A stretch of DNA of 64,000 bases from an uncultured Bacillota bacterium (GTDB lineage: Bacteria > Sysuimicrobiota > Sysuimicrobiia > Sysuimicrobiales > Segetimicrobiaceae). A model generated the notes under the pieces. It ran no database searches, had not been told where the DNA came from, and was given only the letters and a program-made list of their open reading frames with translations. Location: contig CAWDRG010000018.1 of NCBI GenBank assembly GCA_963804645.1, positions 1-64,000 on the forward strand, in the 5' to 3' direction. Position numbers and translations under genes: made by a program. Each line of letters starts with the position of its first letter. Position 1 is the stretch's first letter. Positions 1 to 46,670 of this stretch are shown in pieces.

Positions 1-795
1 GGTGGGGCGTTGGAAGCGAACGCGACGTTCAGCTCCGCGCGGAACGTGACCCTGGGTGGTGGGGCGGTTCAGCCGGACGGCGGGGCGACGCTGACGCTGT
101 CGGGCGTGCTGAGCGGAGCGGGCGGCCTGACGCTCAACGGCGCCGGAACTCTAGTAGTGAGCGGCGTGAACACGTTTACGGGTGGGGCCACCGTAACAGC
201 GGGTACCCTGAGCGTGAGTGCCGACACCAACTTCGGGAATGCGGCGAATACCATCACGCTGAACGGCGGGACGCTGGTGAGCACCGCCACCTTCGGCTCG
301 GCCCGGAACGTCACGCTGGGCGGCGGGGTATTCGGTCCGAACGCGGCGACGACGTTGACGCTGTCGGGCGTGTTGAGCGGGGCGGGGGGCTTGACGCTGA
401 CCGGGACCGGGACCCTGGCCCTCAGCGGGGTGAACACGTTCACGGGTGGCGATACGATCACCACTGGCACGCTCAGTGTCGGGGCCGACACCAACCTCGG
501 CAATGTCGCGAACGCCGTGACGCTGAATGGCGGGACGCTCGCGACGACGGGGGCGTTCACGTCGGCCCGGACGGTGACGGTGAACGCAGGCGGCGGGACG
601 TTCACCCCGAGTGGGGGAACGACGCTGACGCTGTCGGGGACGCTGACCGGGACCGGACCGCTCGCGCTGACCGGCGCGGGCCTGCTGCTGTTGACGGGGA
701 CGGCGAGTGGGGCGACGGGGACGTTCACGGTGACGAACGGCACGCTGGAAGTCGGCAGCGCCGCCACCCGGGGGCCACGTACGGCGGGAACGTGA
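1..795 (+). CDS. Giant autotransporter 1, upstream part of the passenger (gene starts before the window; continuous with 792..10547 across a -1 frameshift at ~767-770)
   Basis: Open frame from base 1 made of passenger-associated repeats (GAGTLxLSGxNTFTGG). It ends GSAATRGP* where paralogous modules read GSAAT(T/P)GxTYGG (e.g. 4141-4180); one base is missing in the CCC/GGGGG run. Confidence 0.85.
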   Translation, partial: GGALEANATFSSARNVTLGGGAVQPDGGATLTLSGVLSGAGGLTLNGAGTLVVSGVNTFTGGATVTAGTLSVSADTNFGNAANTITLNGGTLVSTATFGSARNVTLGGGVFGPNAATTLTLSGVLSGAGGLTLTGTGTLALSGVNTFTGGDTITTGTLSVGADTNLGNVANAVTLNGGTLATTGAFTSARTVTVNAGGGTFTPSGGTTLTLSGTLTGTGPLALTGAGLLLLTGTASGATGTFTVTNGTLEVGSAATRGPRTAGT

Positions 796-3700
796 CGGTG
801 CAGGCAGGCGGGACGCTCGCGGGCCACGGGACGGTGAGCGGGACGGTCACGAACGGCGGCACGGTGGCGCCGGGCGGGACGATCGGGACGCTGACGGTGA
901 CGGGGAACTACACGCAGGGAGCGGGCGACGCGCTGGCGATTGAAGCCAACCCGACGATAGCGAGCGAGCTGGTGATCGCCGGGTCGGCGTCACTCGCGGG
1001 CACGCTCGCGCTGACATTCGATGCGGGAGCATATCTCGCGGGCACGCAGTACACGGTCCTGACGGCGGCGGGCGGGGTCTCGGGGACGTTCGGGACGCTG
1101 ACGCAGGGTGGGGTGAGCATCGGCCTGCTGACCCCGGAGCTGACCTACCAGGCGAACGCGGTCGAGGTGATGCTCGAGCCGGGGGCGTGTTCGGGGCCGG
1201 ATCCGCTGGATTGCGAGGTACCGACGGGCGGGACGCTGCCGTGGCCGACGCAGATCACGGCGACGACGTTGGACCTGAACACGCAGAGCCCGAACAGCGG
1301 GACGATGGTGCTCACGGCCGGGAACAACCAGCAGATGACCACGAACGTGATCGCGGGGACGCTGAGCGTGAGCGCGGCGGGGAACCTGGGCGCGGCGCTG
1401 GGGGCATTGACGCTGGGCGGGACGCAGGCGGGCGGCGGGGCGGCGAACGGCACGCTGTCAATGACGACGGGCCTCGCGTGGGCGGGGAGCGTCACGACGG
1501 CGGGCGCGGGCGGGACGCTGCTGGTGGGCAACGGGCAGGCGAGCACGCTGTCGGGGAATGTCGCGGACGCGGCGGGGCTGACGGTCGGGGACGGCGGGGA
1601 CGCCGGGACGCTGACGCTGTCGGGGATCGTGAGCGGGGCGGGCGGGGTGACGGTCGGCGGCGGCACGCTCGCCCTCACCGGGACGAACACGTACCAGGGG
1701 GGGACGGTTCTCACCGCCGGGACCCTGGACGTGAGCGCCGACAGCAATCTCGGCAACGCGGCGGGGGGCCTCATCTTCAACGGCGGGACGCTGCTGCTGA
1801 CGGCGGGCACGTTCGGGAGTTCCGCCCGCACGATCGCGTTGGCGGGGACCGGGACGATCAGCGTGGGGCCGTTCACCACCACGTTCTCGGGGGTGATCTC
1901 CGGGGCCGGCATGCTGACGCTGCTGGGTGGGGGTACGACGACGCTCTCCGGGGCGAACACGTTTACGGGCACACTCGCGGTCCTCAATGGGACGCTGAGC
2001 GTCGGCAGTCCGAGTAATTTGGGGGCCGCGTCGGCGACGCTGGCGCTGACGACGGGGACGCTCTTGATCACGGGGGCGGGGTTTGGGACGGCGGCGCAGG
2101 CGATCACGGTGAGCGGGGGGAGCACGCTCAATAACGGCGGGAACGCCGCAGGGTTCTCGGGGATCGTGTCCGGCAGCGGCGGGCTGACGCTGCCGGGCGC
2201 CGGCACGACCACGCTGTCGGGGGTCAACACCTTCACCGGCGGTGTCACCGTGACGGCGGGGACAGTGAGCGTGGGGGCCGATACGAACCTCGGTGATGCG
2301 GCGAATACGCTGACGCTCAGCGGGGGGACGCTGCAGAGCACCGCGACGTTCGCGTCGGCACGAGCGGTGACGCTGGGTGGCGGCACGATCAGCCCGAACG
2401 GCGCGACGACGCTGACGCTGTCCGGCGTGCTCAGTGGCGCGGGCGGGCTGACGCTCAACGGGGCCGGGGCCCTGGTCCTGACCGGGGTCAATACCTTCAC
2501 CGGCGGCGTCACCGTGACGGCCGGGACGCTGAGCGTGAACACGGACACGAACCTGGGCAATGCGGCCAATACCGCGGTGTTGACCGGCGGGACACTGCAG
2601 ACCACGGGCACGTTTGCGTCGGCCCGGAACGTCACGCTGGGCGGCGGGGCGATCAGCCCGAACGCGGCGACGACGCTGACCTTGTCGGGCGTGCTGAGTG
2701 GCGCGGGCGGGCTGACACTCAACGGGGCCGGAACCCTCGTGCTCAGCGGTGTGAACACGTTCACGGGTGGGGCCACCGTGACCGCCGGCACCCTGAGCGT
2801 CGGCGCCGACACCAACCTCGGCAATGGTGCGAACAGTGTGACGCTCAACGGCGGGACGCTGCAGAGCACCGCGACGTTCGCGTCGGCGCGAGCGGTGACG
2901 CTGGGTGGCGGCACGATCAGCCCGAACGCGGCGACGACGCTGACCTTGTCGGGCGTGCTGAGCGGCGCGGGCGGGCTCACGTTCAACGGGGCGGGGACCT
3001 TGGCGCTGTCCGGGGTCAATACATTCACGGGCGGCGTGACGGTGACGACGGGCACCCTGAGCGTCGGCGCGGACGCGAACCTCGGGAACGCCGGGAACAG
3101 TGTGACGTTGAATGCCGGGACGCTGGCGATCGCGAACGCGGGCTTCGGCGCCTCGGCCCGCGCCATCGCCCTCAACGGCGGCGGCACGCTCGACAACGGA
3201 GGCAATACGGTGACGTTCTCGGGGGCGATCTCCGGGGCCGGCGGCCTGACGGTCCAGGGGGCCGGGACGACCGTGCTCTCGGGCGCGAGCACGTACACCG
3301 GTGGGACCACACTGACGGCGGGGACGCTGGACGTTGGTGCGGACGCGAATCTCGGAAACGCTGCGGGGGCGCTGACGCTGGCTGGGGGCACGCTCGAGAG
3401 CACCGCGACCTTCGCCTCGGCCCGGAGCGTCACGCTGGGCGGCGGGGCGATCAGCCCGAACGCGGCGACGACGCTGACGCTGTCGGGAGTGCTGAGCGGT
3501 GGGGCCGGGCTGACGCTCAACGCGCCGGGGACGCTGGCGCTCAGCGGGGTCAATACGTTCACAGGCGGGGTGACGGTCACGGCCGGGACGCTGAGTGTGA
3601 GCGCCGACAGTAACTTCGGGAATGCGGCGAATGCCGTCGCGCTGAACGGCGGGACGCTGGTGAGCACCGCCGCCTTCGGCTCGGCCCGGAACGTCACGCT

Positions 3701-6700
3701 GGGCGGCGGCGTGGTGAGTCCAAGCGCGGCGACGACGCTGACGCTGTCGGGCGTCCTGAGCGGTGGTGGCGGGCTGCTCCTGAACGGCGCCGGCGCGCTC
3801 GTCCTCTCCGACGCCGCCAACAGCTACACGGGCGGGACGACGCTGACGGCGGGGACCCTGAGCGTCGGGGCCGACGGGGACCTCGGGAACGCGGCGAACG
3901 GCGTGACCTTCAACGGTGGCGCGCTCGCGACGACGGGGGCGTTCACGTCGGCACGGACGGTGACGGTGAACGCGGGCGGTGGGACGTTCCTCGCGAGCGG
4001 GGGCACAACGCTGACGCTGTCGGGCACGGTGACCGGGACGGGGGCGCTGGCCGTCGCGGGCGGCGGGACGGTGCTGCTGACCGGCAACGGCAGCGGGGCC
4101 ACGGGGACGTTCACGGTGACCAATGGCACGCTGGAAGTCGGCAGCGCCGCCACCACGGGGGCCACGTACGGCGGGAACGTGACGGTGCAGGCAGGCGGGA
4201 CGCTGGCGGGCCACGGGACGGTGAGCGGGACGGTCGCGAACGGCGGCACGGTGGCGCCGGGCGGGACGATCGGGACGCTCACGGTGTTGGGGAACTACAC
4301 GCAGGGCGCGGGCGACATCCTGGCGATCGAGGCCAACCCGACCATGGCGAGCGAGTTGGTGATCAGCGGGTCGGCGTCGCTCGCGGGCACGCTCGCGCTG
4401 ACGTTCGACGCGGGCGCGTACCTCGCGGGCACGCAGTACACGGTCCTGACGGCGGCCGGCGGGGTGGCCGGCACATTCGGGATGCTGACGGTGGGCGGGG
4501 CAAGTCTCGGCCTCTTGACCGCGGAGCTGAGCTACCAGGCGAATGCGGTGGACGTGACGCTGGAGCCGGGGGCGTGTACGGGACCGGATCCACTGGACTG
4601 CGAGGTGCCGACGGGCGGGACGCTGCCCTGGGCCACGCAGGTTACGGCGACGACGGTGGACCTGAACACCCAGAGCCCCAACAGCGGGACGCTGGTGCTT
4701 ACCGCGGTGAACAACCAGCAGACGACCACGAACGTGATCGCCGGCACACTGAGCGTGAGCGCGGCGGGGAACCTGGGCGCGGCGCTTGGGGCGCTCGTGC
4801 TGGGTGGGACGCAGGCGGGCGGCGGCGCCACCACTGGGACGCTGCTCATGACGACCGGGATCGCGTGGGCCGGGAGCATCACCACCGCGGGGGCGGGCGG
4901 CACCCTGTTGGTGGCGACCGGGCAGGCGAGCGCGCTGTCCGGAACCGTGGCCGACGCGGCGGGCCTCACGGTCGGGAGCGCGGGCGAGACCGGGACCCTG
5001 ACGCTGTCGGGGATCGTGAGCGGGGCGGGCGGCGTCACCGTGAGCGGCGGCACGCTCATCCTCAGCGGGATCAACACGTACACGGGCGGCACCACGCTGA
5101 CCGCCGGGACCCTGCAGGTGGGGAGCGACAGCAACCTCGGTAACGCCGCGGGGGCGGTGGCCATCAATGGGGGCACGCTCGTGAGCACCGCGACGTTCGC
5201 CTCTGCCCGCGCCCTCACGCTCGGTGGCGGGGCGCTCAGCCCGAACGCGGGAACGACGCTGACCCTGTCGGGCGTGCTGAGTGGAGCGGGTGGGCTCATC
5301 CTCAACGGGGCCGGGACCCTCGGACTCTCTAACGCCGGCAACAACTACTCAGGCGGCGTCACGGTGACGGGCGGCACGCTGAGCGTGGGGACGGATGCGA
5401 ACCTCGGGAACGCGGGCAACACCGTGACGCTGAATGCCGGGACGCTCGCAATCAACAACGCAGGGTTCGGGACTTCGGCGCGGACGATCGCGCTCAACGG
5501 CGGGGGGACCCTCAATAACGGTGGGAACGCGGTGACGTTCTCGGGCGTGATCTCCGGGAGCGGGGGCCTGACGGCCGCAGGGGCAGGGACGACGACGCTG
5601 AGCGGGATCAACACGTACACGGGCGGGACGACGATCACCGGCGGCACGCTGAGCGTGGGCAGCGACGACAACCTCGGCGACGCTGCGGGCGGGCTGACGC
5701 TGAACGCGGGGACGCTCGCGATCAACAGCGCGGGGTTCGGGACCTCGGCCCGGACGATCGCGCTGAACGGCGGCGGCACGCTCGAGAACGGCGGCAACGC
5801 GGTGACGTTCTCCGGAGTCGTCTCCGGGAACGGGGGCCTGACGGCCGCGGGCGCGGGGACCACGACGCTGAGCGGGATCAACACGTACACCGGCGGGACG
5901 ACGGTCACTGGCGGCACGCTGAGCGTGGGCAGCGACAATAACCTCGGCAACGCCGCGGGCGGCGTGACGCTGAATGCGGGGACGCTCGCGATCAACAACG
6001 CGGGGTTCGGGACCTCGGCCCGGACGATCGCGCTGAACGGCGGCGGCACGCTCGATAACGGCGGCAACGCGGTGACGTTCTCCGGAGTCGTCTCCGGGAA
6101 CGGGGGCCTGACGGCCGCGGGGGCGGGGCCGACGACGCTGAGCGGGATCAACACGTACACCGGCGGGACGACGGTCGCTGGCGGCACGCTGAGCGTGGGC
6201 AGCGACAATAACCTCGGGAACGCCGCGGGCGGCGTGACGCTGAATGCGGGGACGCTCGCGATCAACAATGCGGGGTTTGGGATCTCGGCGCGGACGATGG
6301 CCCTGAACGGCGGCGGCACGCTCAACAACGGTGGCAACTCCGTGACGTTCTCAGGAGTGATCTCCGGGAACGGCGGCCTGACGGCGGCGGGCGCGGGAAC
6401 CACGACGCTCAGCGGGATCAACACCTACACCGGCGGCACGACGATCGATGGCGGCGCGACGGTCGGTGTGGGTGCCGACGCGGCGCTGGGCGCGGCCGCA
6501 GGTGGCGCGCTATTCAATAATGGAACGCTCGCGACGACGGGGACGTTCACGTCTGGGCGGACGGTGACGGTGGGCGCGGGCGGCGGGACGTTCACGCCGA
6601 GCGGCGGGACGACGCTGACGCTGTCGGGGACGGTGAGCGGGGCGGGGGCGCTCGGGGTGACGGGCCCGGGGACGGTGCTGCTGACGGGGACGGCGAGTGG

Positions 6701-9700
6701 GGCGACGGGAACGGCCGCGGTGGCGAGCGGGACGCTGGCGGTGGGGAGCGCCGCGACGCCGGGGGTGACGTACGGCGGAGCGGTGACGGTCCAGGCGGGC
6801 GGGACACTCGCGGGGTACGGGACGGTCAGTGGGGGTGTGACGAATAACGGGACGGTGAACGCGGGTGGGACCCCGGGGATGATCGGGGCGCTCGCGGTCA
6901 CGGGCAATTACACCCAGGGGGCCGGGGGCACGCTGGGGATCGAAGCAACGCCGGCCACGGCGGACATGCTGACGGTGGGCGGCTCGGCGACGCTTGGGGG
7001 GACGCTGGCCCTGACCTTCGATGCGGGCGCGTACGTGGCGGGGACGCAGTACACGCTGCTGACGGCGGTGGGCGGGGTGTCGGGGACGTTCGGGGCGCTC
7101 ACGCAAGGTGGGGCGAGCATCGGGGCGTTGACGCCGGAACTGACGTATCAGGCGAATGCGGTGAAGCTGACGCTGGCGGCGGGGGTGTGCGTGGGCAACC
7201 CGGTGCTGGACTGTGAGGTGCCGGCGAACAACACGGCGCTGCTGGCGACGCAGGTCACCGCGACGACGCTGGACCTGAACACGCAGAGTCCGAACACGGG
7301 GACGCTGGTACTGAGTGCAGGGAATAACCAGCAGACGAGTACGAACGTGATCGCGGGGACGCTGAGCGTGAGCACGGCGGGGAACCTGGGCGCGGCGCTG
7401 GGGGCGCTGACACTCGGCGGGACGCAGGCGGGCGGCGGAGCAACGACCGGGACGCTGCTGCTGACGGCGGGGCTCACGTGGGCGGGGAGCATCACGACGG
7501 CGGGGACGGGCGGCGCGATCTCGGTGAGCGCGGGCCAGGCGAGCACGCTGTCGGGGGCCGTGACCGACGCGGCGGGCCTCACGGTCGGGGACGCGGTGAA
7601 CACGGGGACGCTGACGCTCTCGGGGGTGGTGAGCGGGGCGGGCGGCGTGACGGTCAGCGGCGGGACGCTGGTGCTGAGTGGGGTGAACACGTACAGCGGC
7701 GGGACGGCGGTGACGGGTGGTGGCACGGTGAGCGTGAGCGCGGACGCGAACCTGGGCAATGCCGCGGGGAGTCTGATGCTCGACAACGGGACGCTCGCGC
7801 TCGCGGGGGCGGGATTCACGTCGGCGCGCGGAGTGACGCTGAACGCGGGCGGCGGGACGGTCAACACGAACGGGTTGACCGGGACGCTGTCGGGCGCGGT
7901 GGGCGGCGTGGGCGCGCTCACAGTGACGGGTGGGGGCACCCTGGTATTGAGTGGAGCGAACATGTACCAGGGCGGCACCACGGTGACGGGCGGCGGCACG
8001 CTGAGCGTAAGTAACGACGGCAACCTGGGTGCTGCGGGGACGGGGCTGACGCTGAACAATGGGAGCCTGGCGCTCGCCGGGGCGGGCTTCACGTCGGCGC
8101 GCGGGATCACGCTCGGCGCGGGCGGCGGGGCGGTCAACACGAACGGCTTTGTCGGGATATTGTCGGGGGTCATCGGGGGGGCCGGCGCGCTCACGGTGAC
8201 GGGCGGCGGCACGCTCACGCTGAGCGGGGCGAATACGTACGGGGGCGGGACGACGGTCGGAGCGGGCACGACGCTGATCGGGGCGACGACGAGCGTGCAG
8301 GGCAATATCGCCAACGCCGGCACGGTCGAGTTCAATCAGGCGGGCGCGGGCACGTACGCCGGGGTGGTGAGCGGCAACGGCACCCTGACGGTCATCGGCG
8401 GCGGCATGCTCACGCTGAGTGGCGCGAACACGTACACCGGCGGGACCACGGTCGCGGCGGGCACGACGCTGATCGGGACGACCACGAGCGTACAGGGCAG
8501 TATTGCCAACGCCGGCACGGTGGAGTTCAACCAAGCGGGGGCGGGCACGTACGACGGGGTGCTGAGCAGCACCGGCGCGCTGACGATCATGGGCGGCGGC
8601 ATGGTCACGCTGAGCGGGACGAACACCTACAGCGGCGGCACCACGGTCACGGGCAGCACGGTGGTGGTCGCGAGCGACGCGAACCTGGGTGCGCCCGCGA
8701 GCACGCTCACCTTGAACAACGGGACGCTGCAGGTGGCGGGGTCCGCCTTCACCTCCGGTCGCCCTCTCATACTGCTTGGGGCCGACCAGATCAACACCGC
8801 GGGGAACACGATGACGCTGTCCGGAACGCTGAGCGGCGCGGGCGCCCTCACCGTGACGGGCGGGGGAACCCTCACCCTCACGGGCGCGAGCACCTACACC
8901 GGCGGCACGACGGTCACTGCGGGAACGCTTGCCATCGGCACCGACGCGACGGGCAGCATCGTCGGCCCCGTGACGGTCAACGCCGGGGGCACGCTGCAGG
9001 GGTACGGGACCATCACCGGGGACGTCATGAACCTCGGCGGGACGGTGATGCCCGGTGGCAGCAACGGGATCGGGACGCTCACGATTACAGGCGCCTACAC
9101 GCAGGGGGCGGGCGGCACGTTCGCCGCCGAAGTGTCGCCCACCGCGGCATCCAAGCTGAGCATCGGCGGGGCGGCCGCGGTGGCGGGAACCCTGAGTCTG
9201 ACGTTCGATCCGGGCGTGTACACAACGGGGCAGTACACGCTGCTGAACGCCGCCGGAGGGCTGAGCGGGACATTCGGCACGGTGGACGCCACCGGCAACC
9301 TGTTCGTGCAGTACACGCTCGGCTACACCGCGGACGCCTTGACGCTGACGATCGGCGACACGTTCAGCTTCAGCGACTTCGCCCAGACGCCGAACCAGAT
9401 CGCGGTGGCGCGGGTGCTCGATGCCGCGTCCCCGACCGCGAGCGGGGACCTGGCGACGGTGCTGACTGCGCTGACCAGCCTGTCAACGGGGAACCAGGTG
9501 CGCGCGGCGCTCGACGCGCTCACCGGGGTGGTGTACACGAATCTCCCGACCGTCACCGCCGAGGACACGTGGTCGGCGATGGACCTGGTCTTCCAGCACC
9601 TGAGCGACGTGCAGAGCGGCACCAGTGCGGCCACGCCGGCGCTGACCGCGTTCGCGCCGGGGCTGGGCGGGCAGGCTGGTCCTGTCACGTGGGCCGGCGC

Positions 9701-10547
9701 CGAACCTGGCGATCCGACGGGATGGCTGACGCCGCTGACCAGCAGCCAGACGCTGCAGGGGACGGCGAACGCGCCGGGGTTCACGAACCAGAGCACGGGA
9801 CTGCTGCTCGGGTACGATTACGTGGCCGGCCCGCGGCTGACGTGGGGGTACGCGGCGGGGACGTGGCAGTCCTCGCTCACCCTGGCCAACGGGAACGGAA
9901 CGGCGGGCATCACCACGGTCGCCGGGGCGGTGTACGGCGGCTACACCGCGGGCGCGTTCGAGGCGCGGGGCCTGATCGGGTATGGGGTGAACAACTTCCA
10001 AACGACCCGGCCGATCAACTTTGGGGATCTGTCCAGGACCGCGACGGCGTCGGGAACGGGGAACGAGATCATGGCCGGGCTCGAGGCCGACTACCGGCTG
10101 CAGGCGGGGGTGCTGACCGTCCGTCCGACGCTGGGTCTCGAATACGTACATCTCACCGAGCCCGCGTTCACGGAGTCGGGGGCCGGCTCGATCGATCTCG
10201 GGGTCAATGCCGTGACGGCGGATTGGCTGCAGGGCCTCGCGGGCGTCCGCCTCGATTACGCGCAGACGACTGCCGCGGGGACACAGATCACGTATACGCT
10301 GCACGCGGAGTACACGACGCTGGCGACGGAGCCGGTTCCGCAGATTCAGACGCTGCTGCTGGGTGCCGCGTCGGCGGGGCCGTTCCTCACGACGGGCATT
10401 ACCGCGGCGCCCAACGCGGTTGGGGCGGGGGCCCGCATCACGCTCCACGCCTCCGACCGTTATGATCTCTACGCCGGCTACGACGCGGCTTGGAGCAGCA
10501 ACGAGACCAACCAGACCTTCAGCGCCGGTCTCCTCATTCACTTCTGA
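792..10547 (+). CDS. Giant type Va autotransporter/adhesin 1 (passenger repeats plus C-terminal beta-barrel)
   Basis: 3251-aa ORF with dozens of GxGTLxLxGxNTYxGG repeats, an AQTPNQIAVA linker, an amphipathic barrel (~9720-10547) and a terminal Phe (FSAGLLIHF). Confidence 0.92.
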   Translation: MTVQAGGTLAGHGTVSGTVTNGGTVAPGGTIGTLTVTGNYTQGAGDALAIEANPTIASELVIAGSASLAGTLALTFDAGAYLAGTQYTVLTAAGGVSGTFGTLTQGGVSIGLLTPELTYQANAVEVMLEPGACSGPDPLDCEVPTGGTLPWPTQITATTLDLNTQSPNSGTMVLTAGNNQQMTTNVIAGTLSVSAAGNLGAALGALTLGGTQAGGGAANGTLSMTTGLAWAGSVTTAGAGGTLLVGNGQASTLSGNVADAAGLTVGDGGDAGTLTLSGIVSGAGGVTVGGGTLALTGTNTYQGGTVLTAGTLDVSADSNLGNAAGGLIFNGGTLLLTAGTFGSSARTIALAGTGTISVGPFTTTFSGVISGAGMLTLLGGGTTTLSGANTFTGTLAVLNGTLSVGSPSNLGAASATLALTTGTLLITGAGFGTAAQAITVSGGSTLNNGGNAAGFSGIVSGSGGLTLPGAGTTTLSGVNTFTGGVTVTAGTVSVGADTNLGDAANTLTLSGGTLQSTATFASARAVTLGGGTISPNGATTLTLSGVLSGAGGLTLNGAGALVLTGVNTFTGGVTVTAGTLSVNTDTNLGNAANTAVLTGGTLQTTGTFASARNVTLGGGAISPNAATTLTLSGVLSGAGGLTLNGAGTLVLSGVNTFTGGATVTAGTLSVGADTNLGNGANSVTLNGGTLQSTATFASARAVTLGGGTISPNAATTLTLSGVLSGAGGLTFNGAGTLALSGVNTFTGGVTVTTGTLSVGADANLGNAGNSVTLNAGTLAIANAGFGASARAIALNGGGTLDNGGNTVTFSGAISGAGGLTVQGAGTTVLSGASTYTGGTTLTAGTLDVGADANLGNAAGALTLAGGTLESTATFASARSVTLGGGAISPNAATTLTLSGVLSGGAGLTLNAPGTLALSGVNTFTGGVTVTAGTLSVSADSNFGNAANAVALNGGTLVSTAAFGSARNVTLGGGVVSPSAATTLTLSGVLSGGGGLLLNGAGALVLSDAANSYTGGTTLTAGTLSVGADGDLGNAANGVTFNGGALATTGAFTSARTVTVNAGGGTFLASGGTTLTLSGTVTGTGALAVAGGGTVLLTGNGSGATGTFTVTNGTLEVGSAATTGATYGGNVTVQAGGTLAGHGTVSGTVANGGTVAPGGTIGTLTVLGNYTQGAGDILAIEANPTMASELVISGSASLAGTLALTFDAGAYLAGTQYTVLTAAGGVAGTFGMLTVGGASLGLLTAELSYQANAVDVTLEPGACTGPDPLDCEVPTGGTLPWATQVTATTVDLNTQSPNSGTLVLTAVNNQQTTTNVIAGTLSVSAAGNLGAALGALVLGGTQAGGGATTGTLLMTTGIAWAGSITTAGAGGTLLVATGQASALSGTVADAAGLTVGSAGETGTLTLSGIVSGAGGVTVSGGTLILSGINTYTGGTTLTAGTLQVGSDSNLGNAAGAVAINGGTLVSTATFASARALTLGGGALSPNAGTTLTLSGVLSGAGGLILNGAGTLGLSNAGNNYSGGVTVTGGTLSVGTDANLGNAGNTVTLNAGTLAINNAGFGTSARTIALNGGGTLNNGGNAVTFSGVISGSGGLTAAGAGTTTLSGINTYTGGTTITGGTLSVGSDDNLGDAAGGLTLNAGTLAINSAGFGTSARTIALNGGGTLENGGNAVTFSGVVSGNGGLTAAGAGTTTLSGINTYTGGTTVTGGTLSVGSDNNLGNAAGGVTLNAGTLAINNAGFGTSARTIALNGGGTLDNGGNAVTFSGVVSGNGGLTAAGAGPTTLSGINTYTGGTTVAGGTLSVGSDNNLGNAAGGVTLNAGTLAINNAGFGISARTMALNGGGTLNNGGNSVTFSGVISGNGGLTAAGAGTTTLSGINTYTGGTTIDGGATVGVGADAALGAAAGGALFNNGTLATTGTFTSGRTVTVGAGGGTFTPSGGTTLTLSGTVSGAGALGVTGPGTVLLTGTASGATGTAAVASGTLAVGSAATPGVTYGGAVTVQAGGTLAGYGTVSGGVTNNGTVNAGGTPGMIGALAVTGNYTQGAGGTLGIEATPATADMLTVGGSATLGGTLALTFDAGAYVAGTQYTLLTAVGGVSGTFGALTQGGASIGALTPELTYQANAVKLTLAAGVCVGNPVLDCEVPANNTALLATQVTATTLDLNTQSPNTGTLVLSAGNNQQTSTNVIAGTLSVSTAGNLGAALGALTLGGTQAGGGATTGTLLLTAGLTWAGSITTAGTGGAISVSAGQASTLSGAVTDAAGLTVGDAVNTGTLTLSGVVSGAGGVTVSGGTLVLSGVNTYSGGTAVTGGGTVSVSADANLGNAAGSLMLDNGTLALAGAGFTSARGVTLNAGGGTVNTNGLTGTLSGAVGGVGALTVTGGGTLVLSGANMYQGGTTVTGGGTLSVSNDGNLGAAGTGLTLNNGSLALAGAGFTSARGITLGAGGGAVNTNGFVGILSGVIGGAGALTVTGGGTLTLSGANTYGGGTTVGAGTTLIGATTSVQGNIANAGTVEFNQAGAGTYAGVVSGNGTLTVIGGGMLTLSGANTYTGGTTVAAGTTLIGTTTSVQGSIANAGTVEFNQAGAGTYDGVLSSTGALTIMGGGMVTLSGTNTYSGGTTVTGSTVVVASDANLGAPASTLTLNNGTLQVAGSAFTSGRPLILLGADQINTAGNTMTLSGTLSGAGALTVTGGGTLTLTGASTYTGGTTVTAGTLAIGTDATGSIVGPVTVNAGGTLQGYGTITGDVMNLGGTVMPGGSNGIGTLTITGAYTQGAGGTFAAEVSPTAASKLSIGGAAAVAGTLSLTFDPGVYTTGQYTLLNAAGGLSGTFGTVDATGNLFVQYTLGYTADALTLTIGDTFSFSDFAQTPNQIAVARVLDAASPTASGDLATVLTALTSLSTGNQVRAALDALTGVVYTNLPTVTAEDTWSAMDLVFQHLSDVQSGTSAATPALTAFAPGLGGQAGPVTWAGAEPGDPTGWLTPLTSSQTLQGTANAPGFTNQSTGLLLGYDYVAGPRLTWGYAAGTWQSSLTLANGNGTAGITTVAGAVYGGYTAGAFEARGLIGYGVNNFQTTRPINFGDLSRTATASGTGNEIMAGLEADYRLQAGVLTVRPTLGLEYVHLTEPAFTESGAGSIDLGVNAVTADWLQGLAGVRLDYAQTTAAGTQITYTLHAEYTTLATEPVPQIQTLLLGAASAGPFLTTGITAAPNAVGAGARITLHASDRYDLYAGYDAAWSSNETNQTFSAGLLIHF
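5350..6430 (+). repeat. Four near-identical 270-bp (90-aa) tandem units inside autotransporter 1
   Basis: TLNAGTLAIN(N/S)AGFG...GINTYTGGTT recurs at 270-bp spacing (~5425, 5695, 5965, 6235). Confidence 0.85.
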
Positions 10548-10940
10548 ACGCCGCGCTTCACCCCCTCATCGAGCGGGCATGTCGGGACAGGTCTCGACCT
10601 GCGCTCGTTCATACCCCGGATCACACCCGCAGTTCACCCTCGATCTACTTCGCACGCTCCGGTGTCACTACACCCTCGTAACCGCCTGCTCGCGTCTCAC
10701 CGTGGGACGGTGCATTCCCACCGATCGGGAACGTCCCGTGCAAGGAATACCGAACAATTGATCGAATCGGTTGGGCCGTATGGCTCAGATGGAGCGCCCG
10801 GGCGCGCATCGGGAGGGTGTGAATCAGGTACCTTTCTACCATACATGCGCGCCCGCACCGTATGATACCGTAACGGGTGCTGACGGTCTCTTTAGGACAG
10901 GTCGGCGGGAGGGATGGGGACTTCCAGATAGCGCCGTGGG

Positions 10941-11016
10941 CACGACAAGAGCAAACCTGGGGTGACCCAGGGACGCAAAGCCGCCGGGCCACGTGGAGCC
11001 AGCGGGGCTGCGGAAG
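10941..11016 (+). ncRNA. GEMM-I cyclic-dinucleotide riboswitch aptamer (c-di-GMP-I family), A20 variant, candidate c-AMP-GMP sensor
   Basis: CACGACAAGA-GCAAACC-TGGG(GTGA)CCCA-GGGACGCAAAGCC-GCCGGGCC...GCCAGCGGGGCTGC matches GEMM-I landmarks (GCAAACC, GNRA-capped P2, GGGACGCAAAG, AGCGGGG receptor side). It lies in the leader of autotransporter 2. Confidence 0.85.
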
Positions 11017-11049
11017 CCGGGAATGGGATGCATGTTTCCGGCTTCTTTC
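11012..11049 (+). terminator. Intrinsic terminator-like hairpin forming the riboswitch expression platform
   Basis: GAAGCCGGGAA (11013-11023) pairs with TTTCCGGCTTC (11035-11045), followed by TTTC. Its 5' arm overlaps the aptamer 3' P1 strand. The U-tract is short. Confidence 0.65.
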
Positions 11050-11295
11050 ATGTGTGCCGCTGTCTGGAGGAACGCGCGATGCCGGACCGAGACGGAGCGA
11101 TCGGCTTCCATAAAGGTGGCGCTGGCAGCGTCGAGCGTCGCCGTGCCGCGCGCGGCGCGACTGCGTCGGGTCACGGTGCCGGCCGACCGGCACGGCGGTG
11201 TATCGGCTGGCGTGGCTCGTCTCGACGGGATTGGGGCCTTCAGCGGGCATCGTTGACGGTATCGACTCCTGGCATCCTCGGGCGGTTTGTGAGCG

Positions 11296-13635
11296 TTGGG
11301 GCGGCGTAGCGCTCGTGGCACGTGGTCCCGCGTCCGGAGGGACGCCTGTTGCGCGGCGGTGATCGTCGCGCTGATGGTGTCACTCCAGGGCGCCGCGCTC
11401 GTCATCCCGGCGGAGGCGCAGAGCTGTATCTCGAACGGCATGGGCACCACCGACTGTGAGGTCCCGACCGGCAGCTTCACGTATAACACGGCGATCACCG
11501 ACACGAACCTCGTCATCAACACGACCAGCCCCAACAACGGCACCCTCACGCTCGGCGGGACCAACACCCAGACCAACACCACGATCGACGCGGGCCAGGT
11601 GGACGTTAGCAGCGCCGCCAACCTCGGCGGCGCGGGGGCCGGCCTCACCCTGACGATCGGCGGCTCGCAGGCGGGCGGCGGCAATACGTTTGGGAACGTG
11701 CTGGAGACGACGGGGTTCACGTGGAACGGCGGCATCACGACCGGCGGGACCGGCGGGGACCTGAGCGTCAGTTCGGGACAGTCGGGGACGTTCACCGGGA
11801 ACATCAATAACGCGGCCGCCCTGGACGTCGGAAGCAACGGGACGGGGACGGTCACGCTGTCCGGGATCATCAGCGGCGCCGGGGCACTCACGCTGAACGG
11901 CGGCACGCTGCTGCTGTCCGGGACGAACACGTACACGGGCGGCACGACGATCGCGGCCGGCACGCTCCAGGTCGGCGCGGACGCGAAACTCGGCAACGCC
12001 GCCGGGAGCGTCACGTTGAACGGCGGCATCCTGGAGGCGACGTCGACCTTCGCGTCGGCGCGGAACATCACGCTCGGCGGGGGTACCTTCCAGCCGGATA
12101 GCGGGGTGACGCTGACGCTCTCGGGGGTGCTGAGTGGGTCAGGCGGCCTGACCCTGACCGGGGCCGGGACGCTCGTGCTGAGCGGGACGAACACGTTTAC
12201 CGGCGGCATCAGCGTCACGACGGGCACCCTCTCGTTCGGCGCGGACAACAACCTCGGCAACGCCAGCAACAACATCACCCTGAACGCCGGGACGCTTCTG
12301 AGCGCGGGCAACTTCACGTCCGCGCGCAACCTCACGCTGAGCAACGGTGCCACCATCACGGTGACCACAGGCGGGGGGCCGCTGACGCTCTCCGGCACGC
12401 TCAGCGGCAGCGGCGGGCTGAACGCCAACGGCACCGGGCGGCTGGTCCTCACGGGCGTGAACACGTTCACGGGCACGGTCACGGTCACCACCGGACAGCT
12501 CCAGGTCACCGCCGACAACCAGTTCGGGAACGCGGCCAACTCGATCACCCTCAACAACGACGGACGGCTGTTCCTTTTCTCGGGCTTCGCCTCCGCGCGC
12601 AACATCACGCTGAGCGCGGGCAACGAGAACATCACGCCGTTCTCCGGGACTACCACGCTGTCGGGGGTCCTCAGCGGGAGCGGCACGCTGACCCCGGCCG
12701 GGGGTGCTGGCGGCACGCTGGTGCTCTCCGGGACCAACACCTACACGGGCGGCACGAATGTCGACATGAGTGGGGGGGCGCTCTCGGTGAGCGCGGACGC
12801 GAACCTGGGCGCCGCCTCGGGTGCGCTCACACTGACCACCGCCACGCTTCAGACGACGGCGACCTTCAGTTCGGCGCGGAGCGTGACGCTGGCGGGAGGG
12901 ACGATCAGCCCGAACGCCGCGACGACGCTGACGCTGTCGGGCTTGGTGAGCAGCAGCGGCGGGCTCCTGCTGAACGGGGCGGGGACGCTGCTCCTGTCCG
13001 ACGCCAGCAACAGCTTTACGGGTAACGTCACGATCACGGCCGGCAACCTGAGCGTGGGCGCGAACGGTGACCTGGGCGCCGGGGCCAACACGGTGACGCT
13101 GAACGGCGGGGCGCTGGAGGCCAATGCGACGTTCGCGTCGGCGCGGAGCATCACGCTGGGCGGCGGCGCGTTCCAGCCGGACAGCGGGGCCACGCTGACG
13201 CTGTCGGGCTTGCTGAGCGGCAGCAGCGGACTGACGGTGAACGGAGCGGGGACGCTGCTGCTCTCCGACGCCAGCAACAGCTTTACGGGTAACGTCACGA
13301 TCACGGCCGGCAACCTGAGCGTGGGCGCGAACGGTGACCTGGGCGCCGGGGCCAACACGGTGACGCTGAACGGCGGGGCGCTGGAGGCGAATGCGACGTT
13401 CGCGTCGGCGCGGAGCATCACGCTCGGCGGTGGGGCGTTCCAGCCGGATAGCGGGGCCACGCTGACGCTGTCCGGGCTGTTGAGCGGCGGCAGCGGGCTC
13501 AAACTGAACGGAGCGGGGACACTCCTGCTTTCCGATGCCAGCAACAGCTTTACGGGTAACGTCACGATCACGGCCGGCAACCTGAGCGTGGGGGCGGATG
13601 CCGACCTGGGCGCCGGGGCCAACACGGTGACCTGA
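11296..13635 (+). CDS. Giant autotransporter 2, N-terminal part (signal peptide, Cys cap, passenger repeats); joins 13689..27395 across a -1 frameshift at ~13631
   Basis: Basic N-region plus hydrophobic AAVIVALMVSLQGAALV and an AEA|Q cleavage motif, then passenger repeats. GTGACCTGAAC at 13627 versus GTGACGCTGAAC in sister repeats. Exact start codon uncertain. Confidence 0.85.
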   Translation: MGRRSARGTWSRVRRDACCAAVIVALMVSLQGAALVIPAEAQSCISNGMGTTDCEVPTGSFTYNTAITDTNLVINTTSPNNGTLTLGGTNTQTNTTIDAGQVDVSSAANLGGAGAGLTLTIGGSQAGGGNTFGNVLETTGFTWNGGITTGGTGGDLSVSSGQSGTFTGNINNAAALDVGSNGTGTVTLSGIISGAGALTLNGGTLLLSGTNTYTGGTTIAAGTLQVGADAKLGNAAGSVTLNGGILEATSTFASARNITLGGGTFQPDSGVTLTLSGVLSGSGGLTLTGAGTLVLSGTNTFTGGISVTTGTLSFGADNNLGNASNNITLNAGTLLSAGNFTSARNLTLSNGATITVTTGGGPLTLSGTLSGSGGLNANGTGRLVLTGVNTFTGTVTVTTGQLQVTADNQFGNAANSITLNNDGRLFLFSGFASARNITLSAGNENITPFSGTTTLSGVLSGSGTLTPAGGAGGTLVLSGTNTYTGGTNVDMSGGALSVSADANLGAASGALTLTTATLQTTATFSSARSVTLAGGTISPNAATTLTLSGLVSSSGGLLLNGAGTLLLSDASNSFTGNVTITAGNLSVGANGDLGAGANTVTLNGGALEANATFASARSITLGGGAFQPDSGATLTLSGLLSGSSGLTVNGAGTLLLSDASNSFTGNVTITAGNLSVGANGDLGAGANTVTLNGGALEANATFASARSITLGGGAFQPDSGATLTLSGLLSGGSGLKLNGAGTLLLSDASNSFTGNVTITAGNLSVGADADLGAGANTVT

Positions 13636-13900
13636 ACGGCGGGGCGCTCGAGGCGAATGCGACGTTCGCGTCGGCGCGAAGCATCACATTGGGCGGCGGC
13701 GCGTTCCAGCCTGACAGCGGCGACACGCTGACACTGTCCGGATTGCTGAGCGGCGCCGGCGGGCTCACTCTGAACGGGGCGGGGACGCTGATTCTTTCCG
13801 ACGCCAGCAACAGTTTTACGGGCAACGTCACGATCACGGCCGGCAACCTCAGCGTGGCGGCGGACGGCGACCTGGGGGCCGCGGCCAACACGGTGACGCT
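12870..13900 (+). repeat. ~4 near-identical 267-bp (89-aa) tandem units in autotransporter 2
   Basis: GG(T/C)AACGTCACGATCACGGCC at 13021, 13288, 13555 and 13821; the last interval is 266 bp, which confirms the 1-bp deletion. Confidence 0.9.
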
Positions 13901-16900
13901 GAACGGCGGAGCACTCGTCACGACGGCGGGGTTCACGTCGGCGCGGAACATGACGCTCGGCGGCGGTGCCTTCACCACTAACGCCGTCGGGTTCACGGTC
14001 TCCGGGGTGCTCAGCGGCGCGGGCGGGCTCACCGAGAACGGCACCGGCCAGCTGATCCTGACGGGGACCAACACGTTCACCGGCGGCGTCACGATCTCAG
14101 GCGGAGAGGTCGAGATCAGCGCGGACAACAACCTCGGCAATGCCGCGAACAACATCACCCTGAGCGGGAACGGACGGGTGAGGGCAGTCGCGACCTTCGC
14201 GTCGGCCAGGAACATCACGCTCGGCGCCGGCGGCGGGAACCTCACTTCGTTTGGCGGCGGGCAAGTCCTTACGCTGTCCGGCGTAATCAGCGGGAGCGGC
14301 GCGCTGACGGCGCTCAACGGCGCCGGCACGCTGGTGCTGAGCGGGACCAACACGTACACCGGCGGCACGATCGTCCAGTTTCAGACGACCCAAATCAGCG
14401 CGGACGCGAACCTGGGTGCGGCCGCCGGGGGGCTGACGCTCAACGGCGGCAGCCTCATCACCACGGCGACGTTCAGTTCGGCGCGGGCCGTTACGCTCGG
14501 CGGCGCGACCTTCGCGCCCAGCGCCGCGACGACACTAACCTTGTCAGGGGTCCTGAGCAGCACCGGCGGGCTGAAGTTGAATGGGGCGGGGACGCTGCTC
14601 TTGTCCGGGACGAACACGTTCACGGGCGGCGTCACGATGACCGCCGGGAACCTCAGCGTGGACGCGGATGCCAATCTCGGGAACGCGGCGAACACGGTGA
14701 CGCTCAACGGCGGCGCTCTGGAAGCGAACGCGACCTTCGCATCGGCACGCAGCATCACCCTGGGGGGCGGCGCGTTCCAGCCGGATGGTGGGGCCACGCT
14801 GACCCTGTCGGGCCTCCTGAGCGGCAGCAGCGGACTGAAGGTGAACGGGGCCGGGACGCTGCTGCTTTCCGATGCCAGCAACAGCTTTACGGGTAACGTC
14901 ACGATCACGGCCGGCAACCTGAGCGTAGGGGCGGACGCCGACCTGGGCGCCGGGGCCAACACGGTGACGCTGAACGGCGGGGCGCTGGAGGCGAATGCGA
15001 CGTTCGCGTCGGCGCGCAGCGTCACGTTGGGCGGCGGCGCGTTCCAGCCGGACAGCGGCGACACGCTGACGCTGTCGGGATTGCTGAGTGGCGCCGGCGG
15101 GCTCAAACTGAACGGGGCGGGGACGCTCGTCCTTTCCGACGCCAGCAACAGCTATACGGGCGGCACCACGATCACAAACGGCACGCTGAGCGTGGGGGTC
15201 GACGCCGACATGGGCGCCGGAGCCAACATCGTGACGCTCAACGGTGGGACGCTGAACACCACGACGACGTTCACGTCGGCGCGGAACGTGACGCTCGGCG
15301 GGGGGGCGTTCGGCCCCAGCAGCGGGACGGGGCTGACGCTGTCGGGCGTGCTGAGCGGCAGTGGCGGCCTGACGGCGAACGGCCCGGGCAATTTGTCCCC
15401 CACCAATACGAACACGTTCACGGGCGGTGTCACGATCAACGCCGGGGTTGTCAACTGGACCGCCGACGCCAATTTTGGGAATGCGTCGAACGCAATCACC
15501 TTGAACGGCGGCCAGCTGGATGTGCGCGCGACCTTTACCTCGGCGCGCAACATCATCCTGGGCGGCGGCAACCTCAACACGGGGCTCGGCAACCCGATCA
15601 CGCTCACGGGCGTGATCAGCAGCGTGGGGAGCCCGGGATTCCTCATCAACGGCGGCGGCGGCGCGGTCGTGTTCACCGGCACGAACACGTATCAAGGTGG
15701 CACGACGATCGGGTTCAACTATGCCGCCGGCTATCTCAGCATCAGCGCGGATGCGAACCTGGGAAACGCGAGCGGCGGGGTCACGCTGACCGAAGGATTC
15801 CTCGATACGACGGCGACCTTCAGCTCGGCCCGGGCGTTCACGCTCAACGGCGGCGACTTCAACCCGAGCAGCGGGACGGTGTTCACGATCTCCGGCCTGC
15901 TGAGCGGCAGCGGCGGGCTCATTCTGAACGGGGCGGGGACGCTGCTCCTGTCCGACGCCAGCAACAGCTATACGGGCGGCAACACGATCACGACAGGCAA
16001 CCTCAGCGTGGGGGCGAACGGCGATCTGGGCGACGCTGCCAATACGGTGACGCTGAACGGTGGGGCGCTCGAGGCAAACGCGACGTTCACGTCGGCGCGG
16101 AGCATCACGCTGGGCGGCGGGGCGTTCCAGCCGGACAGCGGGGCCACGCTGACGCTGTCTGGCTTGTTGAGCGGCAGCGGGGGGTTGACGGTGAACGGGG
16201 CGGGGACGCTGCTGCTCTCCGACGCCAGCAACAGTTACACCGGCAACGTCACGATCACGGCCGGCAACCTGAGCGTCGGGGCGGATGCCGACCTGGGCAA
16301 TGCCGCCAACACGGTAACGCTCAACGGCGGGGCGCTCGAGGCGAACGTGACGTTCGCGTCGGCGCGGACGCTGACGCTGGGCGGCGGGGCGTTCCAGCCG
16401 GACAGCGGCGTTACGCTGACGCTGTCGGGGACCCTGAGCGGCAGCGGCGGATTGACCGTGAACGGGGCGGGGACGGTTGTGATCAGCGGGACGAACACGG
16501 TCACGAACGGCGTCACCGTGACGACCGGCACGCTGCAGGTGAGCGCCGACAACAAGCTGGGCAACGCGGCGAACGGCGTGACGCTCAACGCCGGCACGTT
16601 GCTCACGACCGCGACCTTCACCACCGCGCGCGCGATCTCGCTGTCGGGCGGCGGGACGATCGACGCGAGCGCCGGGAACTTGACCCAAACCGGGGTGATC
16701 TCCGGAAGCGGCGGGTTGACGACGGCAGGCGGCGGCGCCGTGGTGCTGTCGGGCACGAACACCTACACGGGCGGCACGACGATCAACGCAAACACGACCG
16801 TGTCCGCCGACGCCAACTTCGGAAACGCCGCGGGTGCACTCACCCTGGCTGACAACGTCATCCTACAGGCGAAGTCGAGCTTTTCGTCTGCGCGGGCAGT

Positions 16901-19900
16901 GACGCTGACCGGTATCTCGAATGGGACCGGATTTATCAACGAGCTGAACGGGGTGACGCTGACCCTCACCGGCGTGATCAGCGGCATCGGCAATCTGGTC
17001 GAACAGAGCGGCGGCGGGACGCTGGTGCTGTCCGGCACGAACACGTACCAGGGCGGGACCATCCTCCAGCCCGGGACCCTCAGTGTTGGCGCGGACGCCA
17101 ATTTGGGCGCGGCCTCGGGCGGGCTGACCCTGAATAGCGGCGGCACGCTGAAGACCACCGCCACGTTCGCCTCCGCCCGAGCCGTGACGCTCGGCGGCGC
17201 CACGATCAGCCCAAGCGCGGCGACGACGCTGACGCTGTCGGGGATCCTGAGCAGCACTGGGGGACTGACGCTGAATGGCGCCGGGACGCTGCTGCTGTCC
17301 GGGACCAACACGTTCACGGGTGGGGACACGATCACGGCCGGGAACCTGAGCGTGGGCGCGGACGCCAATCTCGGGAACGCGGCGAACACGATCACCCTGA
17401 ACGGTGGGGCGCTCGAGGCGAATGCGAGCTTCGCATCGGCGCGGAGCATCACGCTGGGCGGCGGGGCGTTCCAGCCGGACAGCGGGGCCACGCTGACCTT
17501 GTCGGGCCTGCTGAGCGGCAGCGGGGGGCTGACGGTGAACGGGGCGGGGACGCTGCTCCTCACCGACGCCAGCAACAACTATACGGGCGGCAACACGATC
17601 ACCACCGGCAACCTCAGTGTGGGGGCGGATGCCGACCTGGGCAACGCGGCGAACACGGTCACGCTCAACGGCGGGGCACTCGAGGCGAATGCGACGTTCG
17701 CATCGGCGCGGAACATCACGCTCGGCGGCGGCGCGTTCCAGCCGGACAGCGGGGCCACGCTGACCTTGTCGGGCCTGCTGAGCAGCACAGGCGGGCTCAA
17801 GCTGAACGGGGCGGGTACGCTCATCCTTTCTGACGCCAGCAACAGCTATACGGGCGGCAATACGATCACCACCGGCAACCTCAGCGTGGGGGCCGACGCG
17901 GACCTGGGCGCCCTGGCGAACGGCGTGACCTTCAATGGGGGGGCGCTGGCGACGACGGGGTCGTTCACGTCGGCGCGGACGGTGACAGCGGGGGCGGGGG
18001 GCGGCACGTTCACCCCGAGCGGGGGGACGACACTGACGCTGTCAGGGACGCTGACGGGCAGCGGGGCGCTGGCGCTCAACGGGGCCGGGCTGCTGCTCCT
18101 GACCGGCACGGCGAGCGGCGCCACAGGGACGTTCACGGTCACGAGCGGGACGCTGGAAGTCGGCAGTGCGGCGATCCCCGGCGTGACCTACGGCGGGAAC
18201 GTGGCGGTGCAGGCGGCCGGGACGCTGGCGGGGCACGGCACGGTGAGCGGGAACGTGACGAACGGCGGCACAGTGGCGCCGGGCGGGACGATCGGGACGC
18301 TGACGGTGATGGGGAACTACACGCAGGGAGCCGGGGACACACTCTCCATTGAAGCGAACCCGGCAACCTCCAGCGAGTTGGTGATCAGCGGCTCGGCGTC
18401 GCTGGCGGGGACGCTCGCGCTGACGTTCGACGCGGGGACATACACGGCGGGGACGGAGTACACGATCCTGACGGCGGCGGGCGGGGTCACGGGCACGTTC
18501 GGGACGCTGACGCAGGGCGGGGCGAGTATCGGCCTCCTGACGCCGGTGCTGAGTTACCAGGCGAATGCGGTGGACGTGACGCTGGACTCGGGCGCGTGCA
18601 CGGGGCCGGACCCGTTGGACTGCGAGGTGCCGACCGGTTCGACGCTGCCGTGGGTGGCGCAGATCACGGCGACGACGCTGGACCTGAACACGCAGAGTCC
18701 GAACAGCGGGACGATGGTGCTGTCGAACGCGGCGAACCAGCAGACGAGCACCAACGTGATCGCGGGTATCCTCAGCGTGAGCGCGGCGGGGAATCTGGGG
18801 GCGGCGCTGGGGGCGCTGACGCTGGGTGGGACGCAGGCAGGCGGCGGGGCCACGAACGGGACGCTGTCGATGACGACGGGCCTCGTGTGGGCGGGGAGCG
18901 TTGCGACGGCGGGGGCGGGCGGGACGCTCTTGGTGAGCACCGGGCAGACGAGCACGCTGTCGGGGAACGTCACGAACGCGGCGGGGCTGACGGTGGGGGA
19001 TGCGGGTGATGTCGGGGCGCTGACGCTGTCGGGGAACATCAGCGGGAGCGGAGCGGTCACGGTGAACGGCGGGACCGTCGTGCTGTCGGGGACCAACAGC
19101 TATACGGGCGGGACGACGGTGACGGCGGGGACGCTGCAGGTGAGCGCGGACAACAATCTCGGCGGGGCCGGGGCGGTGACGCTGAACGGCGGAACGCTGC
19201 AGAGCACGGCGACGTTCGCGTCGGCGCGGGCCGTGACCTTGGGCGGCGGCGCCCTCAGCCCGAACGCGGCAACCACGCTGACGCTGTCGGGCGTGCTGAG
19301 TGGCAGCGTGGGGCTGACGCTCAACGCGCCGGGGACGCTGGCGCTGTCGGGGACGAACACCTTCACGGGCGGGGTCACCGTCACCACGGGCACCTTGGCG
19401 GTCAGCGCCGACAACAACCTCGGTGCCGCGGCGAACACTGTGACCCTGAACGGGGGCACGCTGCAGACGACGGTGACGTTTGCGTCGGCGCGAAATGTGA
19501 CGCTCGGCGGCGGGGCGCTCAGCCCGAATGCGGGGACGACGCTGACGCTGTCGGGGGTGCTGAGCGGCGGCGTGGGGCTGACGCTCAACGCGCCGGGGAA
19601 ACTCGCGCTGACGGGGGCCAACACGTTTACGGGCGGGGTGACGGTCACGTCGGGCACCCTGGACGTGAGCGCCGACACTAACCTCGGTGCCGCGGCGAAC
19701 ACCGTGACGCTGAACGGCGGGACGCTCGAGAGTTCCGGGACCTTCACCTCCGCGCGCACGGTGACGCTCGGCGGCGGGAGCATCAGCCCGGACAGCGGGA
19801 CGGCGTTGACACTGTCGGCGGCGCTGGGCGGCACGGGTGGGCTCGCACTCAACGGCGCGGGGACGCTGGTCCTCACGGGGTCCAATTCCTTCACGGGCGG

Positions 19901-27604: not shown

Positions 27605-27681
<77 letters not shown>

Positions 27682-44469: not shown

Positions 44470-44473
44470 CGCC

Positions 44474-46571: not shown

Positions 46572-46656
46572 AGGGATATCCGTTGTGAGACCTGACCCTC
46601 TTGGCACGGCGTTGAGTCTCGGTGAGGGAGGCCCGAATCTAGTCCAGTATGTATAT

Positions 46657-46670
46657 CGTACATATGTTCG
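46657..46670 (-). promoter_or_regulatory. LexA (SOS) box, GAAC-N4-GTTC type, overlapping the imuA promoter
   Basis: Minus-strand CGAACATATGTACG lies within TTGCAT-18 bp-TACGAT upstream of imuA. Confidence 0.8.

Follow-up and report, generated by a model that had tools for sequence, protein, structure and literature searches.

A probable c-di-GMP class I transcriptional ON switch with adenine at position 20 precedes a giant autotransporter gene in an uncultured member of the Sysuimicrobiota

The leader of a giant PATR autotransporter gene in an uncultured bacterium carries a GEMM-I aptamer with A at position 20 (A20, Vc2 numbering). We consider it likely that this element is a class I transcriptional ON switch for c-di-GMP, with a threshold raised by A20. 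The DNA analysed, a stretch of 64,000 nt (hereafter the window), lies at the beginning of contig C18 in the host genome (G000; 5.3 Mb, about 69% GC, 96.8% complete, with indels). The phylum (CSP1-3/Sysuimicrobiota) is described as one class with one order (PMC11604079), and the window was compared with a phylum set of 94 genomes, from one order and seven families. Of the 120 best RecA homologs listed, those that carry a taxon name are called 'Armatimonadota bacterium' or 'bacterium HR32', and HR32 belongs to this phylum, which together with that description points to CSP1-3/Sysuimicrobiota.

Results

A GEMM-I aptamer with A20

The covariance model RF01051 matched positions 10940-11015 of the + strand with 60 bits (gathering threshold 35, E 3.2e-09, full model 1-87), which bears out the GEMM-I identity proposed in a preliminary description of this DNA. 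It was the sole riboswitch match in the window at the gathering threshold. From the match and from a listing of pairs for each leader, the GEMM-I (c-di-GMP-I) aptamer was placed at 10939-11018 (+). The 5′ strand of P1 (10939-10944) pairs with 11013-11018, and P1b/P2 spans 10951-10976 with a GUGA (GNRA) loop at 10962-10965. Position A47 is 10977 and C92 is 11011, and P3 is short in this copy. The hallmark G21-C46 and C22-G45 pairs, the GNRA-loop P2, A47 and C92 are all present. The hallmark G20, the canonical c-di-GMP contact, is absent: the base immediately 5′ of GCAAA is A at 10950 (+), as the preliminary description had it and as is read directly from the sequence.

The same description had cautioned that position 93 (11012) is G rather than C and that P1 is imperfect. 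Indeed, the G14-C93 pair at the top of P1 is G-G in the window and G-C in the four other autotransporter leaders compared, namely those at G000:C8 and G000:C2, in the sister species G004 and in a metagenome homolog (L087). In Vc2 this pair sits about 4 Å from the bound ligand, and stable ligand binding requires P1a (PMC11705072). Since G93 breaks the ligand-adjacent pair and P1a is needed for stable binding, the window allele (or its assembly) would be a weakened version. With G14-C93 broken and P3 short, it may bind ligand poorly.

P1 and a candidate terminator share bases

A candidate intrinsic terminator lies at 11012-11049 (+), with a hairpin at 11013-11045 (13 bp and a 7-nt loop, or 14 bp counting G11012-U11046) and a U-rich run at 11043-11049. 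Minimum-energy folding of 10925-11055 yields this hairpin (z -2.46; 4 of 200 shuffles were equally good). It was not called by a consensus terminator scan of the + strand, because the U-rich run lies partly within the stem. Positions 11013 and 11016-11018 belong both to the lower P1 pairs and to the 5′ arm of the hairpin, so that the overlap between terminator and 3′ strand of P1, proposed in the preliminary description, is recovered by computation, and base sharing of this kind occurs in all five leaders. P1 and the terminator are mutually exclusive, therefore an ON design is predicted, and the transcriptional ON architecture of the preliminary description stands as a computational result. 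The window hairpin alone is worth -19.3 kcal/mol, and the homologous hairpins after the C8, C2 and G004 aptamers -14.9 to -15.6 kcal/mol. Folding without ligand gives the OFF state an advantage of 14.6 kcal/mol in the window, compared with 7.4-10.1 kcal/mol in the C8, C2 and G004 leaders.

By this architecture, in the absence of ligand the hairpin at 11013-11045 would form and transcription would halt about 250 nt before the autotransporter start. A ligand held between A20, A47 and C92 would close P1, and the closed P1 would capture the 5′ arm of the hairpin, so that the polymerase could continue into the gene of the presumed adhesin.

The region upstream of the aptamer

A putative -10 hexamer of the leader promoter was placed at 10861-10866 (+). 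It is inferred from conservation only, because a sigma-70 consensus scan found no promoters; the motif TATG(A/G)T stands at a similar place in all five autotransporter leaders. Further upstream, at 10751-10764, lies a LexA-like (SOS) box candidate with one mismatch to CGAACA-NN-TGTTCG. Sites with one mismatch number 2 in the window, where 0.19 are expected, and 30 in G000. The box resembles those of recA, lexA and imuA of G000 and is retained upstream of the G000:C8 and G004 leaders; its conservation suggests an SOS input on top of the riboswitch. The preliminary description placed the DNA in a lineage with a Gram-positive-type SOS box, and the analysis supports a diderm host with a LexA box of that type; the genome encodes BamA.

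Several further observations were made on LexA-like sites. The box precedes three autotransporter leaders (window 10751-10764, G000:C8:11270 and L039:2386), and the one in the window coincides in part with a -35/-10-like pair whose spacer is 15 nt. An imuA-imuB-dnaE2 mutagenesis cassette occupies 40948-46670 (-) of the window, with a LexA box at 46657, and its dnaE2 has a match to an intein-splicing domain (PF14890, E 1.4e-13).

The downstream gene and its paralogs

From the end of the aptamer to the TTG start of autotransporter 2 at 11296 there are 280 nt, the distance given in the preliminary description. The gene is present as two ORFs in different frames, with a break near 13630. The 5′ ORF (11296-13635, +) encodes 779 aa, with a signal-peptide-like N-terminus and PATR repeats (PF12951, E 3.7e-25), and the 3′ ORF (13689-27395, +) encodes 4568 aa, with a PATR passenger (PF12951, E 1.1e-80). 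A 12-strand C-terminal beta-barrel ending in Phe is located at about 26571-27332 (PF03797, E 1.7e-46; TIGR01414). The PATR beta-helix passenger, this barrel and the BamA of the host are those of a type Va autotransporter, and the total of about 5,370 codons agrees with the size of ~5400 aa first proposed. What did not hold is the single gene product: the assembly has no continuous ORF from signal peptide to barrel, and the 779 and 4568 aa lie in different frames. One repeat copy at the break is 1 base shorter than five other copies in C18, and comparable frameshifts are found in both paralogs, in the copies of G004 and in a pilT gene of the host. These similar breaks make an assembly indel likelier than a pseudogene, and the frameshift near 13630 is, on this comparison, probably such an indel. 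Autotransporter 2 is presumably an adhesin.

The 3′ part of a tandem paralog, autotransporter 1, occupies 1-10547 (+; PF03797, E 4.2e-45). It begins before the contig start, is frameshifted near 780, and has a barrel 92% identical to that of autotransporter 2. Its own leader, where the preliminary description had suggested looking for a second riboswitch, lies off the contig. G000 has only three autotransporter barrels. In G000, two leaders with G20 precede paralogs that share 96% and 90% identity with autotransporter 2 over the N-terminal 168 aa. One autotransporter with a G20 leader (G000:C8:1-11111, -) runs off its contig without a barrel. Autotransporter 1 may have its 5′ half in this C8 piece, which would make a tandem pair of G20 then A20; no end overlap between the C8 piece and C18 was found. 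A tRNA gene (27605-27678) directly follows autotransporter 2 and is a possible integration site for the autotransporter region.

The state of the window allele

Near relatives of the window leader are present in peat metagenomes from two studies, and the contigs X1 to X4 were compared with the window over 10560-11800. They differ from it at 10997, 11012 and 11033 and carry an extra base near 10994. Position 11012 is C in X1 (12.1/12.1 depth), X3 (6.11/6.11) and X2 (at least 22.2/38.2), and X4 has no coverage there. From these alignments, G93 looks private to this assembly. One contig stretch (X2 record 10, 10848-10996) has no differences from the window and keeps A20, and another (X3 record 17) has five differences, none at 10950, and also keeps A20. 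In G004 the ortholog of this leader, 62% identical to it across the leader region, also has A20; its C92 and C93 are intact and its P1 is strong. As judged from the sister species and the peat contigs, A20 is real and stable at this locus.

The peat differences bear on a reading in which the window copy is a decaying switch stuck mostly OFF, or in which its odd letters are assembly errors and the true allele is C93. By the decay route, A20, the lost G14-C93 pair, the reduced P3 and a terminator stronger than any other in the family would prevent antitermination at cellular ligand levels. Position 93 is C in 52 of the 53 distinct aptamers collected, with the window as the sole G93. This rarity, the excess of the OFF state over that of the three other genomic leaders and the frameshift in the downstream gene all point the same way. 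However, A20 is common to an ortholog with an intact P1, and therefore is not itself decay; the frameshifts, being shared with both paralogs, the copies of G004 and pilT, argue for assembly indels; and the window has lost none of P1b, P2, A47, C92 or the lower pairs of P1. We regard decay, or mis-assembly at 10994-11033, as rather unlikely. Under the c-di-GMP reading that we prefer, the window copy is possibly weakened in this strain.

A20 and G20 precede the same gene families

The five autotransporter leaders are nearly identical through P2, yet G20 is found in three (G000:C8, G000:C2, L087) and A20 in two (window, G004). The preliminary description also noted that the 5′ strand resembles Geobacter-type aptamers. 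Among the 53 aptamers collected here, this strand does not mark A20: CGACAAG precedes G20 in two and A20 in two. G000 has seven GEMM-I aptamers, four with A20 and three with G20. In a family of Gly-rich secreted proteins, 11 G20 aptamers are found at six loci in five genomes of the host's genus, and A20 is found in G000 and in three genomes of another genus. A regular expression retrieved no aptamer at 21 of 30 loci of this family, including L099, where one is known, and a search of the ESM Atlas with the Gly-rich protein returned only scores under 0.9.

Across the phylum set, the A20 pattern gave 20 matches in 15 of the 94 genomes, or 18 in 13 genomes once two matches without an Rfam match (L046, L047) were dropped; three more (L050, L051, L057) were retained on sequence alone. 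The non-A pattern gave 274 matches in 77 of the 94 genomes, with G in 146 of the 150 matches listed. The A20 share is thus 4 of 7 aptamers in G000 vs. 20 of 294 pattern matches phylum-wide. The set of 53 aptamers was selected (best Rfam matches plus A20 matches) and gives no A20 frequency, and the 30 best RF01051 loci are biased toward G20. On a tree of the 53 aptamers built without column 20, which is rough (87 columns), 11 changes of the A20 label are required, of which well-supported branches force at least six; even so, the label clusters more than expected by chance (4 of 500 shuffles gave so low a number).

Other GEMM-I elements were observed along the way. Three more A20 aptamers in G000 (G000:C10:166818-168029 and 180033-180113) precede genes for secreted proteins, one CAP-like and two Gly-rich; two of these aptamers also deviate in GCAAA, and relatives in the genus carry tandem G20 arrays there. 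Elsewhere, A20 aptamers (L040 in G052; L044 and L055 in G057) stand before a transposase-like protein (in two genera, by eye) and a receiver-HD-GYP protein, and aptamer-like matches with C20 occur at L122 (G032:C53), G049:C3 and G058:C121. A GEMM-I element at G000:C4:57907-58010, with U92 (1 of 53) and a long P3, precedes two pilT-like ATPase genes, the first of which is frameshifted in the assembly.

Being kept across species and peat contigs, enriched in G000 and clustered on the tree, A20 is not random noise and could have been selected for a change of ligand. A distinct A20 regulon was not found: both letters precede the same two gene families.

Enzymes that could make or degrade cGAMP

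The preliminary description had inferred that the switch is triggered by 3′3′-cGAMP, as a GEMM-Ib element. A20 with C92 is indeed the GEMM-Ib pocket (PMC6140456), and the conservation of A20 at this locus and its enrichment in G000 speak for such a ligand. Judging from the inventory of the host, this reading requires that cGAMP be taken up from neighbouring cells or made by a synthase that is of unfamiliar type or absent from the assembly.

G000 encodes seven GGDEF domains. The Hypr column, occupied by Ser in the Hypr structure 6D9M, was read nine residues downstream of the conserved Asn (register Asn339/Ser348; PMC6456294); Thr at this signature position also counts as Hypr (PMC9140294). Six of the seven domains have the canonical Asp, and the seventh is degenerate, without the motif. 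A tblastn search of G000 for further GGDEF domains found no eighth locus, so that the genome search for Hypr GGDEF enzymes suggested earlier came out negative in G000. A strict pattern, FK..ND..GH..G followed by a codon that does not start with G, allows for both Ser and Thr; it is consistent with the solved Hypr domain 6D9M and had no matches in the 94 phylum genomes. The same pattern with a codon starting with G, the canonical type, had 401 matches in 93 of the 94 genomes (pattern counts, not individually translated). A relaxed pattern matched in four of the 94 genomes: three are real GGDEF proteins with Thr, and one (L083) is without a GGDEF frame. The strict motif is not exhaustive, because it missed the three Thr proteins, and motif searches can miss divergent enzymes.

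These three proteins (L084 in G032:C15, L085 in G085:C78 and L086 in G086:C84) are membrane GGDEF proteins, MASE1-like by eye, whose GGDEF motif is intact and whose Hypr position is occupied by Thr. By their sequences they are candidate cGAMP synthases in another family of the phylum, and their presence counts in favour of the cGAMP reading. However, no Hypr-pattern match occurs in the 13 genomes that have real A20 aptamers, and the three Thr-type genomes (G032, G085, G086) have no A20 pattern match, the aptamers seen there being G20 or C20.

Searches for other routes gave the following results: (i) SMODS-type nucleotidyltransferases (CD-NTases) were found neither in G000 nor in any of the 94 phylum genomes; (ii) NF041078 (cGAS) had no match in G000, but none in any control genome either, which leaves this search uninformative; (iii) a diadenylate cyclase, encoded in G000, is a further point for cGAMP, but its product does not fit the C92 pocket; and (iv) among the HD-GYP motifs of G000 (three RPYR, one RPYC and one degenerate domain), no phosphodiesterase with RxxQ/N, the signature of the cGAMP type (bioRxiv 10.1101/600031), was found. 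One HD-GYP protein (G000:C9:685878-687293, -) combines the non-canonical RPYC with a second, degenerate HD domain, and no EAL domain was found in G000.

Taken with the same gene families standing under G20 elsewhere, the lack of a separate A20 regulon and the report that A20 is insufficient for selectivity (PMC6140456), these results turn against cGAMP as the signal. A 3′3′-cGAMP-triggered ON switch now appears very unlikely.

Discussion

The preferred reading remains a c-di-GMP switch, and published aptamers indicate how A20 would act in it. The G20A variant of Vc2 binds c-di-GMP at 53 nM and cGAMP at 120 nM, whereas the wild type binds c-di-GMP in the picomolar range; for Cbe 1-2, an A20 aptamer that occurs in nature, the values are 30 nM for c-di-GMP and 463 nM for cGAMP (PMC6140456). 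Binding by A20 aptamers involves protonation of the adenine and is stronger at pH 6.5 than at 8.3, and A20 alone does not confer cGAMP selectivity (PMC6140456). The selective Geobacter aptamers prefer their ligand about 1200- to 1600-fold, in hosts with Hypr enzymes (PMC6456294, PMC8835794), and the available text of PMC5888326 and PMC5473149 yielded no selectivity determinant beyond the pocket bases. By analogy, the cellular ligand of the window switch would be c-di-GMP from the canonical GGDEF enzymes, bound through protonated A20. Because A20 lowers affinity, the window copy probably switches at higher c-di-GMP than the G20 copies of its two paralogs.

The window element resembles Vc2 of Vibrio cholerae (RF01051) in its covariance-model match, P1b/P2 with a GNRA loop, A47, C92 and leader position. 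In contrast to Vc2, it has A20, a broken G14-C93 and a short P3, and its platform is a terminator-based ON design, whereas Vc2 is described as an OFF switch (PMC11705072). With Clostridium beijerinckii Cbe 1-2 and Vc2 G20A (Keller 2018, PMC6140456) it shares an A20/C92 pocket outside Geobacter, and these aptamers bind c-di-GMP at least as well as cGAMP, via protonated adenine (PMC6140456). Unlike Cbe 1-2, it belongs to another lineage with another output, and its host is without recognisable cGAMP enzymes. The Geobacter GEMM-Ib aptamers (Gs1761, Gm0970; Hypr GGDEF GacA) likewise have A at position 20 and control surface-related genes. There, however, Hypr enzymes and a gacA-dependent A20 regulon are described (PMC6456294), whereas here no Hypr enzyme was found and the phylum mixes G20 and A20 within the same gene families. 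Since the sequence definition of GEMM-Ib applies to the element, while the tests of host context failed, we file it under RF01051 and not under GEMM-Ib.

As a working system, the closest analogue is Bc2 before cap in Bacillus thuringiensis, a c-di-GMP-I antitermination ON switch before an adhesin gene (PMC4933901). The window differs from Bc2-cap in that its aptamer has A20 and its output, in a diderm host, is a giant PATR autotransporter of type Va. c-di-GMP-responsive A20 aptamers are thus already known elsewhere. In the literature searched, we found no GEMM-Ib element with an autotransporter and no riboswitch of any kind in Sysuimicrobiota, so the gene context and the lineage of the switch appear to be without an earlier report. 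Our literature search on graded c-di-GMP thresholds found nothing relevant.

Two broader proposals may be set beside the preferred reading. Tentatively, A20 could serve for tuning, by setting two c-di-GMP thresholds for paralogous adhesins, a possibility that we hold to be less than even. Such tuning might be sensitive to pH, since binding requires protonation of A20 and the close relatives come from peat metagenomes. It is highly improbable, by our estimate, that the G20-to-A20 switches of the phylum mark cGAMP signalling by a synthase that is neither Hypr nor CD-NTase, with the tandem autotransporters split between c-di-GMP (G20) and cGAMP (A20). Should the aptamer prove cGAMP-selective after all, a class of cGAMP synthase yet to be discovered would be implied.

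For the biology of this uncultured soil and peat phylum the result is a modest one, probable c-di-GMP riboswitch control of giant autotransporters, together with a clear case against annotating A20 alone as cGAMP sensing. The five near-identical leaders (three G20 and two A20, one of the latter with a broken G14-C93) form a natural matched set only a few positions apart, which can be used to probe determinants of cGAMP selectivity beyond A20, and A20 as a means of staggering c-di-GMP thresholds.
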